A DNA stretch of 64,000 bases from Hyphomonadaceae bacterium (lineage in GTDB: Bacteria; Pseudomonadota; Alphaproteobacteria; Caulobacterales; Aquidulcibacteraceae): NCBI GenBank assembly GCA_033764725.1, contig JANRIR010000073.1, forward strand, positions 9,972 to 73,971, read 5' to 3'. The position numbers and the translations under genes are program-made. A model generated the notes under the pieces. That model did no database searches. It was not told the DNA's origin and saw nothing but the letters and a program-made list of their open reading frames with translations. Below are positions 1,449-51,506 of the stretch, piece by piece. Every line of letters begins with the position of its first letter. Within the stretch, counting starts at the first letter, position 1.

Positions 1449-3695
1449 CTAACCGCCCAGCGCGTCATGGAAGCGGCCCGAGCGCGAAAAGCCGCGCGGC
1501 GCCATGCGGCCAGAGGAGGCGCGCTTGCCGCGGAACTCCTTCCAATCGGGCACTGCGCGTTGGCGACCCGCTGAATCCACCCAGAACAGGCCGGCCGCCT
1601 TGTCGAACACCGCCACGTCCGCCAGCCCGCCGGTCTGGTAGGATTGCAGCTTGACGCCCCGCCCGCGCGGCATTTCCGGCAATTCGGAAAGATCAAAGAT
1701 GAGCAATTTGCGGTTCTCGCCGATCACCGCGAGCTGATCGCCCTCCAGCGCGGCGACCGCGCGCGTCGGCGCCGTCATCACCTGCTTGCCCGCCTTGCGC
1801 GCCGAGAGCATGTCCTCCTCCGGCGCGATGAAGCCATAGCCGTCGAGGCTGGCCATGACGCGCTTGGCGCCGGGCGTGTGTGCGAACAGCGCAACGATCT
1901 CGTGATCTTCGTCGAGGTCGATCATCAGCCTGATCGGTTCGCCCGCGCCGCGGCCGCCGGGCAGCTTGTGGGCATCAAGCGTAAACGCGCGACCGTCGGA
2001 CGCGATGGCGATGATCTTGTCGGTGGTCTGGGCGTGGAACACGAAGGCGGGGCCGTCGCCCTCCTTGAACTTGGTGCTTTCCAGATCGGTCACATGCCCC
2101 TTGAGCGTGCGCACCCAGCCCTTCTCCGAGAGAACGACCGTCACCGGCTCGCGCACGATGAAGGCCTCGACGCTGATCTCTGCGGATTGCTCATCCACCG
2201 CGCCGAAGGTCGCGCGGCGGCGGCCGAGCTTCGTCTCCGGCGCGAACAATTTGCGCGTCTCTTTCAGTTCGCCGGCGATGCGGCGCCATTGCTTCTTGGC
2301 GTCCGCCAGCAGCGCCAGGAGATCTTTCTGCTCTTCGCGAAGCTTTTCATCCTCGCGGCGCAGCTCCATCTCCTCCAGCTTGCGCAACTGGCGCAGGCGG
2401 GTGTTGAGGATGGCCTCGGCCTGCACATCGCTCAAGGTGAAGCGCTGGATCAGCACCGGCTTGGGCTCATCCTCGGTGCGGATGATGCGGATCACCTCGT
2501 CGAGGTTGAGGAAAACGATCAGCAGGCCGGCGAGGATTTCCAGGCGCGCAGCGATCTTCTCCAGGCGATGCTCGGAGCGGCGGCGCAGCACGTCGCGGCG
2601 ATGGTCGAGAAACGCCTGCAGCGCTTCGCCCAGACCCATGACGCGCGGCACGCCGGCGGCGTCGAGCACGTTGAGGTTCAGCGGAATGCGCACTTCGAGA
2701 TCGGACAGCTTGAACAGGCTCTCCATCAGAACCGCCGGCTCGACATTGCGCGATTTCGGCTCGATCACGAGGCGGATGGTTTCGGCGCTTTCGTCGCGCA
2801 CATCGCCCAGAAGCGGCGATTTCTTCGTTTCGATAAGCGCGGCGAGCTCGGCCTCGAGCTTGTTCTTCTGCACCATGTAGGGAATTTCGGTGACGATGAT
2901 GCGCCATTGGCCGCGGCCGAGATCCTCAACCTCCCAGCGCGCGCGCAGGCGAAACCCGCCGCGCCCGGCAGCGTAGGCCTCGCGGATGTTCTCTTTCGGC
3001 TCCACGACGATGCCGCCGGTCGGGAAATCGGGGCCGGGAACGATCTCGATCAGCTCATCGATCGTCGCCTTCGGCTTGTCGATCAGCAGGAGGCACGCAT
3101 CGATGAGCTCGGCGGCGTTGTGCGGCGGGATCGACGTCGCCATGCCGACCGCGATGCCGGATGCGCCGTTGGCCAACAGATTGGGAAACGCCGCCGGCAG
3201 CACCACGGGCTCCTCGTCGGAGCCGTCATAATTGTCGCGGAAATCGACGGCGTTCTCGTCGATGCCTTCGAGAAGCGCTTCGGCCGCCTTGGTCAGGCGG
3301 CTTTCGGTGTAGCGCATCGCGGCGGGGTTATCGCCGTCGATATTGCCGAAATTGCCTTGCCCATCGACGAGCGGATAGCGCGAGGAAAAATCCTGCGCGA
3401 GGCGGACAAGCGCGTCATAGATCGCCTGGTCGCCATGCGGGTGGAACGTGCCCATCACGTCGCCGACCACTTTGGCGCTCTTCTTGAACGCCGCGTCGGG
3501 CGTCAGGCGCAGGCGGCTCATCGCATAGAGCACGCGCCGGTGTACCGGCTTCAGCCCGTCGCGCACGTCCGGCAGCGCGCGCGCCGTGATGGTGGAGAGC
3601 GCATAGGCGAGATAGCGGCGCGACAGCGCTTCGCCGATGGGTTCCTCGATGGTGCGTCCGCCCTCCGGCGGCGTGAGCGTGAGATCGTCGGCCAT
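1449..3695 (-). CDS. parC: DNA topoisomerase IV subunit A
   Basis: 748-aa ORF. The N-terminus ..[32 protein letters not shown].. and the FHPHGD motif are typical of GyrA/ParC. The size and the lack of a GyrA box fit alphaproteobacterial ParC. Confidence 0.9.
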
Positions 3696-37072: not shown

Positions 37073-37747
37073 CTATTCTCGCAATGGTTCGACGGGTGGA
37101 GACGGCTCTCTCCGGTCGATCTGACGGATGCGCCAGTCCATCAGCGACGACACGGCAAACCACACGTAGATGATACAGCACACAAGCGTGACTGACGCGG
37201 CGCCAGAACGTGGCTCAAGCGGATCGTCAATCGTGGGACCAATATCCAGGAGCCATTCTGCGGTGACCCAGGTGGCGACTGCAGCGACAATCCAGACCAG
37301 ACTCGTCCGCCGCAATGCAGAGAACGAATGCCGCAACGCTGCAAAGGTTACGAGTGCAACGGCAAAACCGGCGAAGACAAGCGTTGAAAATTCCTTGCTA
37401 TCTGCGAACCAGTCCTCCCAGGTAACGTTGAAGAGCATGACATCGACACCGACGGCGACGATGATTAAGGTCATCAATACACTGATATACCGTACCAGCC
37501 GTCGCGAAGGCCGATGAGGATCGCCTGCGGTGACGCTCCACAGGTATGCCAATTGCGCGAGTGGAAAAAGCCACATCGTCCACCATGGAACAGACTGACC
37601 AGATCGCGCGGCGATCAGCCATCCCGATGAAAAAGTAAGCGCTGCGGTCGAAACGCCGATGGCTGCGCCTACCAGGCACAACTTTGCCAGCCGCTCTGCT
37701 TTGGCGACGATACGATCTCCGCGCGAGAGGCCGGGCATCGACATCAC
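37073..37747 (-). CDS. polytopic membrane protein of unknown family, lower G+C than neighbours (nuoC-nuoD insert)
   Basis: 224 aa with about 6 hydrophobic segments. The start makes an ATGA overlap with the nuoC stop, and the stop lies 1 nt before the nuoD start. Hand counts of three 60-nt lines give about 48-63% G+C against a visibly richer flank. Confidence 0.6.
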
Positions 37748-38337
37748 CCCGCCTTCTCATCCCCAGGAAGCGTCATCCCCTCCCAAGGGCTGAGAAAATC
37801 GAAATTGCGATACGCCTGCGTCAGCTTCACGGGCTCATACACCACCCGCTCCTGCTCGGGGTCGTAGCGGACCTCGACATAGCCTGTGAGCGGGAATTCC
37901 TTGCGCAGGGGGAAGCCCTCGAAGCCGTAATCGGTCAAGAGCCGGCGCAGGTCCGGGTGGCCGGAGAACAGCACGCCGTACATGTCGAACGTCTCGCGCT
38001 CGAACCAGTCGGCGCTGGGATGCACCCCGGTGACCGAAGGGACCGGCGTTTCGTCATCCGCCTCGATCTTCACGCGCAGGCGCAAATTCCTGCGCATCGA
38101 CAACAGGTGATAGACGACGTCGAAACGCTTCGGCGCGCGCTCGGGATAATCGACGCCGCAGATGTCGATCAAAGTCGTCATCTGCGTGCGCTTGTCGTCG
38201 CGCACGAAGGTCAGCACGGTGACGATGTCGTCCGCCTCCGCCAGCAACGTGAGCTCGCCATGCGCGACGTGATAGCCGCGGATCGCGCGGCCCAGCGCAG
38301 ACGCGATGTGGGCGCCCAGATCGTCCAGCGCGCTCAT
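37744..38337 (-). CDS. nuoC: NADH-quinone oxidoreductase subunit C
   Basis: Starts at [15 protein letters not shown] (residue 138 of ORF 37744..38748). Contains the ..[39 protein letters not shown] signature. It makes an ATGA overlap with the nuoB stop. Confidence 0.94.
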
Positions 38338-38888
38338 CGGTCGATGTTCCCTTCGCGGCGAATTTTGCGCTGCAATTGCAGGATGCCGTACACCAACGCC
38401 TCCGCGGTCGGCGGGCAGCCGGGCACATAGATATCCACCGGTACGATGCGGTCGCACCCGCGCACCACTGCGTAGCTGTAGTGATAATAGCCGCCGCCGT
38501 TCGCGCACGATCCCATCGAGATCACATAGCGCGGATTGGGCATCTGGTCGTAGACCTTGCGCAGCGCCGGCGCCATCTTGTTGGTCAGCGTGCCGGCCAC
38601 GATCATCAGATCGGACTGGCGCGGGCTGCCCCGCGGCGCTGCGCCGAAACGCTCGAGATCGTAGCGCGGATTGCCCGCATGCATCATCTCGACCGCGCAG
38701 CACGCCAGCCCAAACGTCATCCACATCAAGGAGCCTGTGCGCGCCCAAGTGATGACGTCATCCGCCGCGGCGACAAGAAAGCCTTTGTCGGCGAGTTCAT
38801 TCGACAGGCCCGTGAAGAACGGATCGTCTTCCTTAGCGGGATACCCGCCCTCAACGCCGGCGCGGGCAGGAGTTAGCGTTGAACTCAT
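38334..38888 (-). CDS. nuoB: NADH-quinone oxidoreductase subunit B
   Basis: 184 aa. [20 protein letters not shown] and the VPGCPP cluster N2 ligands are present. Confidence 0.96.
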
Positions 38889-38906
38889 GCGAATAACCCC
38901 AAGCGA

Positions 38907-38935
38907 GTCAGTAGGCAGTAGTCAGTAGTCAGTAG
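38907..38935. repeat. heptamer tandem repeat (TCAGTAG-like x4), left arm of an inverted repeat flanking the four-helix-bundle gene
   Basis: The plus strand reads GTCAGTAGGCAGTAGTCAGTAGTCAGTAG. It is complementary at 26 of 29 positions to 39342-39371. Checked against the translation of ORF 38671..38928. Confidence 0.8.
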
Positions 38936-38942
38936 CATGGCT

Positions 38943-39335
38943 CTATCCTGACGGGCTCTGGATGGACCGGATGAGGGAGCGCAGCATTTTGCCAAGTTCA
39001 TCGCTGTCCGACAAAATCTCTCGCACCTGGTCTTCATCGGTGAGTCCTACGCGCGATGTCAGCATAACGTGGGTCTCCAATTCCTTCAGAGAACCATTGG
39101 CGATCCTCAGATATTGCACGAACGTCGCGGTCCCATCACGTCCATACCCTTCCGCGATGTTGGCCGGGATGGAGGCTGCTGCGCGCCGAATTTGGCTGGT
39201 CATGCCGTACGTTTCATCACGCGGGAAACTCTTCGTCAGCACATAGGCCTGCGTGGCGATGCGCATGGCGCTCTGCCAGACCTTGAGGTCGCGATACGAT
39301 TGAACGTCGCTCGACACCTGACCCGCTCGCAGCAA
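38943..39335 (-). CDS. four-helix-bundle protein (23S rRNA intervening-sequence protein / Avd-like family) inserted between nuoA and nuoB
   Basis: ..SYRDLKVWQSAMRIATQAYVLTKSFPRDETYGMTSQIRRAAASIPANIAEGYGR......FVQYLRIANGSLKELETHV is the characteristic pattern of this family. The track start is a TTG at 39335, and a GTG at 39317 is an alternative. G+C is lower than the flanks. Confidence 0.85.
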   Translation of the reverse strand: MLRAGQVSSDVQSYRDLKVWQSAMRIATQAYVLTKSFPRDETYGMTSQIRRAAASIPANIAEGYGRDGTATFVQYLRIANGSLKELETHVMLTSRVGLTDEDQVREILSDSDELGKMLRSLIRSIQSPSG

Positions 39336-39341
39336 CTATTG

Positions 39342-39377
39342 CCTACTGACTAATGCCTACTGACTACTGACTTCTAC
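39342..39377. repeat. degenerate heptamer tandem repeat (CTACTGA-like), right arm of the inverted repeat
   Basis: The plus strand reads CCTACTGACTAATGCCTACTGACTACTGACTTCTAC, running directly into the nuoA stop codon. On the mRNA strand this is a run of NNNNTAG heptamers that puts TAG in all three frames. Checked against the translation of ORF 39069..39353. Confidence 0.8.
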
Positions 39378-39755
39378 CTACTCCCATTCCAACGCTCCCT
39401 TCTTCCATTCGTAGATGAAGCCAACGGTGAGCACGCCCAGAAACGCCATCATCGAGAAGAACGTGAACGCCGCCGCTTCGGGCGGCAGGTTCGTCAGCGT
39501 GATCGCCCAAGGGAACAGGAACGCCACTTCGAGGTCGAAGATGATGAAGAGGATCGACACCAGATAGAAGCGCACGTCGAACTTCATCCGCGCATCGTCG
39601 AAGGCGTTGAAGCCGCACTCATAGGCCGACAGCTTCTCCTTGTCCGGCGCCTTCGGGGCCAGCACCCAGGCGGCCAGGATGAACCCCGCCCCCATCACGC
39701 CCGCGACGCCCAGGAAGATGACGATCGGCAGATAATCCAGAAGGTCGAGCGTCAT
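39378..39755 (-). CDS. nuoA: NADH-quinone oxidoreductase subunit A
   Basis: 125 aa. ..[38 protein letters not shown] is canonical NuoA/ND3. Confidence 0.95.
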
Positions 39756-39804
39756 GGGCGTCCCAGCTTGTGCAGGCCGATTGCTGCCGGCGCGAAGGCT
39801 CTAA

Positions 39805-42165
<2,361 letters not shown>

Positions 42166-44102: not shown

Positions 44103-44522
44103 TCAGGTCGAGCTGTTCGAAGAAGAATTCGAAGAGCTGTTCGACGAACTGTTCGATGAACTGTTCGAGCTCGAATTCGACGACGAGTTGGAGCTCGAGT
44201 TCGACGAGGAATTCGAGGACGAATTGGAGCTGGAGTTCGAGGAAGAATTCGAGCTCGAGTTCGACGAGGAATTCGACGAGGAATTCGAGGACGAGTTCGA
44301 CGAGGAATTGGAGCTGGAATTCGAGATTCCACGTCCGCCGCGGCGGCGCTCGCGCACCTCTTCGACGACCGCACCCTGTTCGGCGCGCGCGTCGGCCGCG
44401 CGTTCGATCTGCGCCGTCCGCGTCACGGAGGCGACGCCGTCATGGGTGGCGGCCTGCGCCCCCATGGCGGACACGCCCAGCGCCGCAGCGGACGCCGTTG
44501 CGATCCAGGTGAACTTTTTCAT
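44103..44522 (-). CDS. secreted protein with C-terminal (Ser-Asn-Ser-Ser)x18 repeat
   Basis: The start MKKFTWIATASAAALGVSAMGAQA-AT is a Sec signal with an AxA site, preceded by GGAAAGG 7-8 nt upstream. A charged linker of about 57 aa follows, then a 73-residue tail that is a perfect SNSS repeat plus a final T. The track ORF is 44103..44567. Confidence 0.7.
   Translation of the reverse strand: MKKFTWIATASAAALGVSAMGAQAATHDGVASVTRTAQIERAADARAEQGAVVEEVRERRRGGRGISNSSSNSSSNSSSNSSSNSSSNSSSNSSSNSSSNSSSNSSSNSSSNSSSNSSSNSSSNSSSNSSSNSSSNSST
44106..44324 (-). repeat. 12-nt-period coding tandem repeat encoding (SNSS)18
   Basis: The period is imperfect at the DNA level: all six Ser codons and both Asn codons are used. 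The peptide repeat is perfect. The tract contains several GAATTC, GAGCTC and CTCGAG sites. Confidence 0.85.
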
Positions 44523-49832: not shown

Positions 49833-51506
49833 ATGCGACGCGCCTCGACCAGCACCCTCCTTGCGGCCACCGCCGGCTTCGCCCTGCTTTGGGGCGGATA
49901 TGCGCCCGGCGTCGGCCAAGAGCCCTCCGGCGCTGCGTTCGCGCAGGAGGCGCCGGACGACGACCCCGACGATGACGCCGATGACGACGATGACCTCGGC
50001 AGCGACGGCGCAGGCGAAGACGATCCCGGCAATGACGGCATCGACGACGCTGGGGGCGACGAGGCTGGGGGCGACGACGTTGGCGGCGATGACGCGGGCG
50101 GCGACGACGCGGGCGGCGATGACGCCGGCGCTGACGATGCGGGCGACGACGGCGCCGGCGGCGATGACGACGGACCCGGCGGAGACGATGGCCCAGGCGG
50201 CGATGATGATGGGCCCGGCGGGGACGATGACGGCTCCGGCGGCGCGCCTGGCAGCGATGACGACGATGGGCCGGGCGGCGATGACGACGACGCGCCCGGA
50301 TCGGGCGGCGGTCGCGACGATGACGACGACGACCCGCCTGGCGGCTCGGGCGTACGCGGCGTCGACGCCGACGGCGGCCAGCGCATTCGCGACGGCGACC
50401 GCGACGTCGCCGGACCGAGCGCGTTGCCTGACGGCGTCGAGGTCGATTTCGAAGGCTATTGGGTGAAGGCCGGCGAAGTGCTGGCGCTGGAGGCCGATCC
50501 CACCTCGCTCGAGTTCGCGCGTGCGCTGGGCTTCGAGGTGATCGAACGCCACCGCTTGACGACGCTCGGCCTGTCGATCGTGGAGCTGCGCGTGCCGCGG
50601 GGACAGCAGACGCGCGCCGCGCTCGAAACGCTGCAAAACGGCGACCCGGACACCGCCTACGATTTTAACCACATCTACACCGCAACCCAGAGCGGGCGCC
50701 CCGCTCCGGGCGGCGCGCGCCGACCTGCCGCGTCCGCAACGACGCCGCCGGCGGTGCGCGCCGGCGCCGTCGGCATTGTCGACACGCGCATTGACGCCGC
50801 GCATCCGAGTTTGCGCCAGGCGCGCATCGTGCAGTCCGACTTCGTCAACCGCACCGTTGCGCCGAACGATCACGGCACTGCGGTCGCGTCGGTGATCGTC
50901 GGCGAAGCGGCGTCGCGATCGACGGCGCTGTCGGTGTACGCCGCGGCCGTGGTCGATCGCTCCGGCGTGCGCGGGGCGGAACTCGCCTCCGCCGACCGTC
51001 TCGTGCGCGCGCTTGATTGGATCGCGCAGAACAATGTCGCGGTGGCCAATGTCAGCCTCGCGGGTCCGCCGAACCGTTTGGTGGAGGACGCCGTGCGGCG
51101 TGCGCAGGCGCGCGGCATGCTGATTGTCGCCGCCGTCGGCAATGACGGGCCGGCCGCGCCGCCGCTCTATCCCGCCGCCTATGACGGCGTCGTCGGCGTG
51201 ACGGCGGTGGACGACAACGGCGTCGTCTATCGGCGTGCAGGGCGCGGCGAGCATGTCGATTTCGCCGCCCGAGGCGTCGGCGTGCAGGTGGCGGCACCGG
51301 CGGGGCAGAGCATGGAGGTCAGCGGCACGTCCTACGCGGCGCCTTCGGTTGCGGCGGCGCTGGCGGAACTGCACACGCGGATGGACGCCGCCTCCGCCGC
51401 GGCGGCGGTGGCGGCGCTGCAGCAGCGCGCGCGCGACGCCGGCGACCGCGGACGCGATCCGGTCTATGGCGACGGCGTGGTGCCGACGGGTCGGGCGACG
51501 CCATGA
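49833..51506 (+). CDS. secreted S8 (subtilisin-like) serine peptidase with a poly-Asp/Gly N-terminal tract of about 150 residues
   Basis: Has a signal peptide (..AAFA-QE). The catalytic triad contexts are GIVDTRID (Asp), NDHGTAVASV (His) and SGTSYAAPSVAA (Ser), with the oxyanion Asn in AAVGNDG. 557 aa. Confidence 0.85.
   Translation: MRRASTSTLLAATAGFALLWGGYAPGVGQEPSGAAFAQEAPDDDPDDDADDDDDLGSDGAGEDDPGNDGIDDAGGDEAGGDDVGGDDAGGDDAGGDDAGADDAGDDGAGGDDDGPGGDDGPGGDDDGPGGDDDGSGGAPGSDDDDGPGGDDDDAPGSGGGRDDDDDDPPGGSGVRGVDADGGQRIRDGDRDVAGPSALPDGVEVDFEGYWVKAGEVLALEADPTSLEFARALGFEVIERHRLTTLGLSIVELRVPRGQQTRAALETLQNGDPDTAYDFNHIYTATQSGRPAPGGARRPAASATTPPAVRAGAVGIVDTRIDAAHPSLRQARIVQSDFVNRTVAPNDHGTAVASVIVGEAASRSTALSVYAAAVVDRSGVRGAELASADRLVRALDWIAQNNVAVANVSLAGPPNRLVEDAVRRAQARGMLIVAAVGNDGPAAPPLYPAAYDGVVGVTAVDDNGVVYRRAGRGEHVDFAARGVGVQVAAPAGQSMEVSGTSYAAPSVAAALAELHTRMDAASAAAAVAALQQRARDAGDRGRDPVYGDGVVPTGRATP
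49953..50402 (+). repeat. imperfect GGCGGCGAYGAC-type coding repeat encoding the acidic (GGDD/GPGGDDD)n tract
   Basis: Residues about 41-190 read PDDDPDDDADDDDD..GGDDAGGDDAGGDDAGADDAGDDGAGGDDDGPGGDDGPGGDDDGPGG..RDDDDDDPPGG. The antisense frames give poly-Ser/Pro shadow ORFs. Confidence 0.8.

Follow-up and report, generated by a model that had tools for sequence, protein, structure and literature searches.

The 64-kb stretch of Hyphomonadaceae contig JANRIR010000073.1 analyzed here (the window, whose positions serve as coordinates throughout) carries on its minus strand a nuo operon for respiratory complex I. The junction between nuoA and nuoB in this operon is occupied by a small gene encoding a four-helix-bundle (4HB) protein, which is bracketed by inverted arrays of 7-nt repeats. 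Between 38300 and 39800 the gene order on the minus strand is nuoA, a 130-codon open reading frame (ORF), and nuoB, with all three genes on the same strand. The features, in the order of transcription, are the following.

39378-39755, minus strand: nuoA, 125 aa, the host gene 5' of the cassette (PF00507, E 6.9e-38).
About 39335-39382, minus strand: upstream (mRNA 5') arm, about six degenerate 7-nt units, defined with Tandem Repeats Finder (TRF; period 7), an inverted-repeat search, and a frame check.
38943-39335, minus strand: 4HB gene, a PF05635/TIGR02436 member, characterized by profile matches, by Foldseek matches of an AlphaFold2 model, and by dN/dS (ratio of nonsynonymous to synonymous substitution rates).
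38906-38935, minus strand: downstream (mRNA 3') arm, 4.3 units of CTACTGA or CTACTGC, the reverse complement of the upstream arm.
38889-38905, minus strand: short spacer from the downstream arm to the nuoB ATG, not conserved in an alignment with the nearest homologous locus (L001).
38334-38888, minus strand: nuoB, 184 aa, the host gene 3' of the cassette (PF01058).

The upstream arm is built from AGTAGTC, AGTAGGC, ATTAGTC, and AATAG units. The TAG stop codon of nuoA lies within the first heptamer-like unit, GGGAGTAG, and the array overlaps the end of nuoA to about 39382. TRF detected period-7 arrays at 38906-38935 (4.3 copies) and at 39335-39372 or 39382 (5.4 copies), and these intergenic 7-nt units, repeated head to tail, constitute a tandem heptanucleotide repeat. 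According to the repeat search, the 30 nt at 38906-38935 are complementary to those at 39343-39372 at 27 positions (90%), with a separation of 407 nt, and the arms can also pair in alternative registers shifted by 7 nt. The first-pass annotation had described inverted heptamer arms around a gene of lower G+C content than its flanks, and both observations were confirmed. The 13-mer CAGTAGTCAGTAG, allowing up to two mismatches, has eight matches in the window, every one of them at this locus, where 0.08 would be expected, and the 64 kb contain neither a further period-7 array of this type nor another PF05635 gene. The 4HB gene has a G+C content of 0.58 and a third-position G+C content (GC3) of 0.70, compared with GC3 values of 0.78-0.89 for nuoA to nuoD.

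A duplex of the two arms closing a loop of about 400 nt on the transcript had been proposed, and the minimum free energy fold of the minus strand does pair the two arms, with a predicted arm-arm duplex energy of -49.9 kcal/mol. The accompanying proposal that the units place stop codons in all three frames held for the upstream arm, which has TAG in 3/3 frames, but not for the downstream arm, which has TGA in 2/3 frames. Among the family members described below, three-frame stops occur in the upstream array of 16 of 30 intergenic arrays, which makes them common but not universal. A scan for promoters and terminators found no promoter-like site or terminator on the sense strand within the cassette. 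Rfam gave no match over the arms or the loop in 38000-40200, where two chance-level matches (E ~0.2) lay elsewhere; it detected no rRNA anywhere in the window and no RNA family in the window, in the loci with cassettes inside ORFs, or in the hairpin loci considered below.

The 4HB ORF comprises 130 codons from a TTG start at 39335, and the database protein of 124 aa corresponds to a GTG start at 39317. In agreement with the earlier assignment to the intervening-sequence (IVS)/Avd-like family of 4HB proteins, the product matches PF05635 ("23S rRNA-intervening sequence protein"; E 6.3e-38, 129.7 bits, cut-off 33.8), TIGR02436 ("four helix bundle protein"; 125.2 bits, cut-off 24), and NF008911 (167.1 bits, cut-off 137). 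The AlphaFold2 monomer model (pLDDT 88.9) contains four helices, at 13-34, 45-63, 69-95, and 101-126, and Foldseek aligned it with 2GSC (Xanthomonas XCC0516; TM 0.75-0.91, rmsd ~1 Å) and 2RLD (TM 0.68-0.89), the former also being recovered by phmmer (E 1.1e-21). The 2GSC and 2RLD entries have five chains apiece, consistent with the published homopentamer (PMC4990558). PF05635 is among the most abundant bacterial families without an assigned function (in one homologue search, nearly 8,000 of the 8,000 candidates scored reached significance), and since the 1990s its product has been known only as the ORF of 23S rRNA IVSs and as a cousin of Avd.

The nearest homologue (L001; 83% identity) occupies the same nuoA-nuoB site and is flanked by the same AGTAGTC unit. 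Between the window and this locus, dN/dS is 0.18 for the 4HB gene and 0.02 for nuoA and nuoB; 4HB genes compared in other pairs gave 0.04-0.21. The two loci agree at 100% of the 46 nt that lead from the gene end through the downstream arm, compared with ~82% identity within the gene, and the 17 nt that follow the downstream arm contain eight differences. Across 25 homologues 33 columns are invariant, many of them polar. The low substitution ratios indicate purifying selection on the 4HB gene and, together with the many invariant polar residues, indicate that the protein is made and matters.

Similarity to Avd would also be expected of an accessory gene of a diversity-generating retroelement (DGR) or of a DGR remnant. 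The only Pfam match besides PF05635 is a weak one to bAvd (PF22296, E 0.0018), NF033474 scores 26.7 bits, the only PHROGs match is "Avd protein of DGR", and the 4HB fold matches that of Avd (PDB 4DWL, 8UB7) with TM ~0.72-0.86; PADLOC returned only a subthreshold match to ThsC. However, the NF033474 score is far under the cut-off of 80, the predicted isoelectric point (pI) is near neutral, and 2GSC and 2RLD, which are the best matches both by structure and by sequence, are not DGR proteins. The neighbors are nuoA and nuoB, with no reverse transcriptase and no pair of template and variable repeats (TR/VR). Heptamer arms are, to our knowledge, not part of the DGR feature set. An identity as DGR Avd was therefore rejected on account of the profile score, the nuo neighbors, and the lack of a TR/VR-like direct repeat, and a DGR origin of any kind is very improbable. 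The structural relationship with Avd does make it probable that the 4HB protein binds nucleic acid.

The organization seen in the window was compared across the family by using 80 loci from a profile scan with one genome per species. These are the best matches to a profile of this gene's relatives and thus a sample of PF05635 biased toward relatives of the query, a caveat that applies to all of the family counts given here; family statistics were computed over 84 loci, with shuffled sequences as controls for the inverted repeats. The 80 loci come from Alphaproteobacteria, Cyanobacteria, Acidobacteriota, Planctomycetota, Chloroflexota, Bacteroidota, and other phyla. In 71 of 84 loci the gene is flanked by an inverted repeat that scores higher than the 99th percentile of the shuffled controls, which favors a cassette over a gene whose relatives lack such repeats. 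Arms pair far better with their own partner than with the arm of another element (median score, 19 versus 7.5; Mann-Whitney p = 3e-36). The arrays fall into 36 unit types with the consensus A-R-T-R-G-N-S; for example, the loci of an Alsobacter metagenome-assembled genome (MAG) (L002) and a Rhodopseudomonas MAG (L003), both at the nuoC-nuoD junction, have arms of GGCAGTA and of GCGAATA/CGAGTAG, respectively. The upstream unit is the reverse complement of the downstream unit, to within 1 nt, in 52 of 57 elements, compared with 14% for random partners. Period-7 arrays number 123 in the ~25 kb adjoining the genes and 70 in the other ~460 kb, a >30-fold enrichment. Heptamer bracketing is therefore a trait of the whole family.

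The two arms also covary. In a phased two-unit alignment both sides had changed in 10 of 14 pairs, and 111 doubly changed cells were counted against 43.5±4.6 in shuffles; the choice of the arms as the best inverted repeats inflates the percentage of paired positions but not the covariation at positions 6-7. Across phyla the A-R-T-R-G core is conserved, and positions 6-7 alone vary and covary. Heptamer simple-sequence repeats are common in bacteria (PMC4692102, PMC4679880), and ordinary repeats could in principle fall by chance on either side of a hypothetical ORF. This explanation is refuted by the motif enrichment (the 8 matches in the window where 0.08 are expected), the like arrangement in 71 of 84 relatives, the specific match of each element's arms to their own partner, and the covariation, and its probability is negligible.

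At one further locus (L206, 2455-2930) the complementarity of the flanks reaches past the heptamers. A purine-rich stretch with a likely ribosome-binding site (GGAAGAGAAGAAAGG before the ATG) lies opposite CCTTCTTCTTTCC just past the stop codon, and because the two face each other, the stem could mask the ribosome-binding site of the 4HB gene. The stem of the Coxiella IVS also contains AGAAGA.

The first-pass annotation had pictured a portable cassette that landed in a protein-coding operon. The portable cassette is well supported, but a single landing is not, because nuo operons of Alphaproteobacteria are commonly hosts of this gene. Residence at the nuoC-nuoD junction was found in 22 of the 80 genome loci and in L002, L003, L205, and L207. 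The carriers include Rhizobium tropici, R. leguminosarum, Bosea, Rhodopseudomonas, Bradyrhizobium, Methylobacterium, Mesorhizobium, Pseudaminobacter, Cucumibacter, Mongoliimonas, Terricaulis, and Parvularculaceae. Residence at nuoA-nuoB was found in the window and in two metagenome contigs, L001 and L204. In many model rhizobia and phototrophs, the nuo transcript appears to include, midway along its length, a structured foreign cassette that may affect subunit stoichiometry. Unidentified reading frames (URFs) are interspersed in the nuo/nqo clusters of Alphaproteobacteria such as Paracoccus and Rhodobacter and are co-transcribed with them; the cassette resembles these in adding a small ORF between complex I genes.

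The two loci whose Nuo proteins are closest to those of the window differ in the junction that is occupied. In Terricaulis (L029; nuoB 87% and nuoD 84-85% identical to those of the window), the nuoA-nuoB junction is empty, as expected for a portable cassette, with a 4-nt GTGA overlap of the nuoA stop and the nuoB start, and the cassette lies at nuoC-nuoD. In L204 (nuoB 90% and nuoD 83% identical), the cassette lies at nuoA-nuoB and nuoC-nuoD is empty. Both junctions are thus occupied and empty within one lineage, and the cassette is therefore read as having been inserted or relocated within the nuo operon of the window lineage. The end of nuoA naturally contains a heptamer-like GGGAGTG/A, and the insertion lies at this sequence; no target-site duplication is recognizable at the nuoA-nuoB junction.

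The history of the gene in nuo operons was compared with that of its host. Distances between 4HB proteins correlate with those between NuoD proteins (Mantel r = 0.39, 0/2000 permutations), with the 4HB protein evolving faster (mean identity, 61% versus 82% for NuoD), and the GC3 of the 4HB gene is below that of nuoD in 26/26 loci. In R. tropici (L014) and R. leguminosarum (L030), with the cassette at 3001-3390, NuoD is 95% identical and the 4HB proteins are <63% identical; the units are AATAGGC and AGTAGTG, respectively, and the 4HB proteins are not mutual nearest relatives. This pair suggests replacement of the cassette at a fixed site and not simple vertical descent.

It is conceivable that the cassette has become a domesticated regulator of complex I, long fixed in alphaproteobacterial nuo operons, in which the stem, the protein, or both tune the relative levels or the assembly of the Nuo subunits. 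Such a role would fit the recurrence at nuoC-nuoD in many genera, the correlated distances, and the purifying selection on the gene. However, the sample is biased toward relatives of the query, the occupied site differs within one lineage, the GC3 of the 4HB gene never equals that of the host genes, and nothing ties the protein to complex I. The same type of cassette also resides in unrelated operons and in restriction-methylase genes, and a dedicated regulatory role is accordingly considered unlikely.

The 4HB gene is co-directional with both neighbors or with the host ORF in 73 of 84 loci, comprising 26 nuo loci, 35 other spacers (called with an ORF heuristic), and 12 insertions inside ORFs; both neighbors lie on the opposite strand in only three of the 84. 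From this sense orientation and the lack of an internal promoter-like site, we infer that the 4HB gene depends on host transcription, as noted for the ORFs of rRNA IVSs. Other host pairs include a glutamine-synthetase-like gene and an FAD oxidoreductase, CP_ATPgrasp and Alpha-E, a Cys/Met-PLP enzyme and threonine synthase, a cyclase and an unknown protein, and a Metallophos protein and an AAA_23 ATPase, the last of which we read as SbcCD-like. Four loci from Mesorhizobium and relatives apparently share one cassette context. In L028 and L067 the cassette lies, by Pfam, between the glutamine-synthetase-like gene and the FAD-dependent oxidoreductase; L068 and L082 are grouped with them by the sizes of the neighboring ORFs, which match (474-478 aa and 428 aa). 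This spacer would add a second conserved operon location to that in nuo.

In 12 loci (L004, L018, L019, L026, L036, L042, L047, L055, L066, L069, L072, and L075) the cassette lies inside an ORF, in most of them at ~3001-3400 of the locus. The hosts are restriction-modification methyltransferases of the Eco57I, MmeI, Type ISP, or DUF1156 type, and the arms are included within the ORF. The host frame is stop-free across the cassette at a constant offset to the 4HB frame, and it stays open even where the GC content is 36-43% and 12-17 stops fall in the other frame; the array units in these loci lack in-frame stops. The long host ORFs, which run off the end of the locus, were reproduced by a second ORF caller. 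A 7-nt unit inside an ORF would permit phase variation by frameshifting.

The arrays also occur on their own. The 20-mer array of the window was found in at least 120 metagenome contigs, only 2 of 120 having an adjoining PF05635 gene. Among these array loci (L084-L203) there are 46 convergent array pairs with spacers of 4-110 nt, many of 55-66 nt, and many of the spacers share a core of ~60 nt, "AAAGAC...GTGTCAGCGTCAGC...GCGCGG". These gene-less hairpins are wedged in very tight spacers between co-directional genes, and the orientation of the core relative to transcription is the same in ~9 of 11 scorable cases. Near cassettes of other phyla, gene-less arrays use the unit of the cassette arms (L018, L019, L026, L034, and L011). 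Representative AGTAGTC hairpins are located as follows.

L102: 280-385, 11294-11400, and 12412-12535.
L175: 5325-5436 and 7857-7984.
L124: 6731-6838.
L172: 624-777.

Three further pairs of AGTAGTC arrays, 1.1-1.3 kb apart, were considered as candidates for other cargo. They bracket ordinary genes or an insertion sequence (a GHMP kinase, electron transfer flavoprotein ETF-alpha, and a DDE transposase) and contain no second type of cargo.

The closest described counterparts of the cassette are the 23S rRNA IVSs of Coxiella burnetii (S23p) and Leptospira, which share with it a PF05635 gene in sense orientation and terminal inverted repeats that close a loop of ~400 nt. In the Coxiella IVS a terminal stem of 28 bp occurs together with three GACAGAT heptamers before the start codon, and RNase III cleavage has been mapped at the first heptamer repeat (PMC4990558). 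In line with the geometry proposed in the first-pass annotation, the window cassette has the sense ORF and the terminal stem of an IVS, but it differs in location, since the host in the window is a spacer of a protein-coding operon and not helix 9, 25, or 45 of 23S rRNA. Moreover, the Coxiella ORF is reported to be decaying and is probably untranslated, whereas the window gene is under purifying selection, and cutting by RNase III is established for the Coxiella IVS, whereas the window duplex is a predicted substrate only.

PF05635 cassettes with inverted 7-nt arrays and no predicted promoter form a widespread class. The locus belongs to this class as an intact member, and it is best explained as an IVS-like sense cassette in the nuo transcript with a processing duplex. 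Inserted in sense orientation at the nuoA-nuoB junction, the cassette would be read within the nuo polycistronic transcript, on which the arms would pair in a ~30-bp duplex closing the 407-nt loop with the gene. This duplex may be a processing site, for RNase III or of a structural kind, that splits nuoA from nuoB-N; cleavage would free a 4HB message with panhandle ends, and the duplex may release, stabilize, or gate that message. The explanation as a whole is given a probability of about 0.5. Its components differ in strength: the identity of the gene and its status as a cassette are highly probable, while the RNase III step, proposed because of the analogy with the Coxiella IVS, lies at or somewhat below an even chance.

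Several observations weigh against this explanation, and its processing step is best described as plausible and partly contradicted. The stability of the whole-region fold is not unusual (z = -1.48). The 75 arm pairs compared contain 277 non-Watson-Crick positions; among these, read on the sense strand, G·U (74) is no more frequent than A·C (74), and because a selected RNA stem should favor G·U, this result fails to support a role in RNA alone. The sense duplex is more stable than the antisense duplex in 48 loci and less so in 35, which is not significant (p = 0.08). With neither a wobble bias nor an advantage of the sense duplex, the complementarity could be maintained at the DNA level. The open host frames of the in-ORF cassettes make sense only if those transcripts are translated through and are therefore not efficiently cut. 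The arms are not simply part of the gene, because most arrays are gene-less. Avd is a basic protein, whereas the predicted pI of the 4HB protein is ~6.8.

An alternative is an element acting at the DNA level, that is, a system of DNA repeats that move or propagate themselves, in which the arrays serve as the functional ends, the 4HB protein recognizes or maintains them, and the RNA duplex is a by-product. Such arrays would be comparable to the terminal repeats of transposons or to the hairpins (REPINs) served by a RAYT gene. With its conserved A-R-T-R-G core and only two covarying positions, the unit resembles a recognition motif more than a plain stem. The equal numbers of G·U and A·C mismatches and the abundance of gene-less hairpins, many with the ~60-nt core, point in the same direction, as does the use of the cassette unit by nearby gene-less arrays. 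Movement of DNA is further suggested by the occupation of different spacers of one operon in related lineages, by the two Rhizobium loci with near-identical NuoD but divergent 4HB proteins and units, and by the low GC3 of the 4HB gene relative to nuoD in every locus compared. On the other hand, the protein is a 120-aa helical bundle without known recombinase or nuclease chemistry, the nuoA-nuoB junction shows no target-site duplication, and the 64-kb window holds no other arrays. The sense bias, in addition, fits a transcript-dependent element and not a purely DNA-level one. A DNA-level element is considered less likely than not.

Systems of the REPIN/RAYT type (REPtrons) offer a parallel in which a single-copy gene lies between inverted repeats and gene-less hairpin doublets occupy tight spacers. 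They differ in that the window gene is not a Y1/HUH transposase and that each arm repeats a short unit in tandem and is not one palindromic REP (repetitive extragenic palindromic) sequence; mobility of the cassette is putative. A broader and more tentative view is that PF05635 cassettes and gene-less heptamer hairpins form one unrecognized class of transcript-dwelling elements, with the 4HB protein as their own factor. Such elements would colonize rRNA helices, operon spacers, and ORFs, always in sense orientation, and the protein would recognize the A-R-T-R-G-N-S repeats, in either DNA or RNA, and would ensure their maintenance or spread. If this view is true, a wholly different protein would stand in a REPIN/RAYT-like relationship to its repeats, and the 30-year-old "IVS protein" would gain a function.

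Similar repeats have been described independently of any gene. In Xanthomonas, GGGAATC heptamer arrays form 70-75 convergent (inverted) pairs (PMC4692102), and other heptamer families include GGGGA(C/T)T in Nostoc (short tandemly repeated repetitive [STRR] sequences) and TAACTGA in Beggiatoaceae (PMC4692102, PMC4679880). Like the arrays of the cassettes, these have period 7, G- or purine-rich units, and intergenic positions within operons, and the units of the cyanobacterial cassettes (GGGAATA, GGGTGTA, and GGGAACA) are G-rich like that of Nostoc. Unlike the published arrays, those considered here bracket a conserved gene, with two arms that covary. The published families look like one and the same phenomenon, described there from the perspective of the repeats. 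The two articles contain no mention of S23, intervening, four-helix, or IVS. The cassette may therefore link a scattered literature on long-unexplained heptanucleotide repeats in Xanthomonas, cyanobacteria, and Beggiatoaceae.

The cassette type is described in the searchable literature only in fragments. That literature yielded no general account of PF05635 genes with heptamer arrays, of residence in nuo operons, or of copies inside ORFs; PF05635 was found mentioned only in one DGR review, and the sole note of heptamers in elements of this type concerns the Coxiella IVS (Warrier et al., 2016). The recurrence of the IVS architecture, a sense ORF with inverted heptamer arms, in mRNA operons and within ORFs makes it a general insertion module and no longer a curiosity of rRNA.

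The nuo operon of the window contains a second extra ORF, of 224 aa with a GC3 of 0.63, between nuoC and nuoD (37073-37747, minus strand). Its start overlaps the nuoC stop, nuoD starts no more than 4 nt past its stop, and the equivalent ORF in L001 has 163 aa. It was rejected as a cassette of the same kind, being without heptamer arms and without a Pfam, NCBIfam, PADLOC, or PHROGs match. Elsewhere in the window, long tandem repeats with in-frame periods lie at 44113-44325 and 50013-50244 (12/36 nt and 15/21/45 nt, GAC/GGC-rich); these are probably repetitive acidic or Gly-Asp coding segments unconnected with the cassette. Upstream of nuoA, on the opposite strand, a 756-aa ORF (39895-42165, plus strand) occupies the position at which L001 has a 731-aa gene with PF00141 (peroxidase), and by this positional counterpart it probably encodes a catalase-peroxidase.

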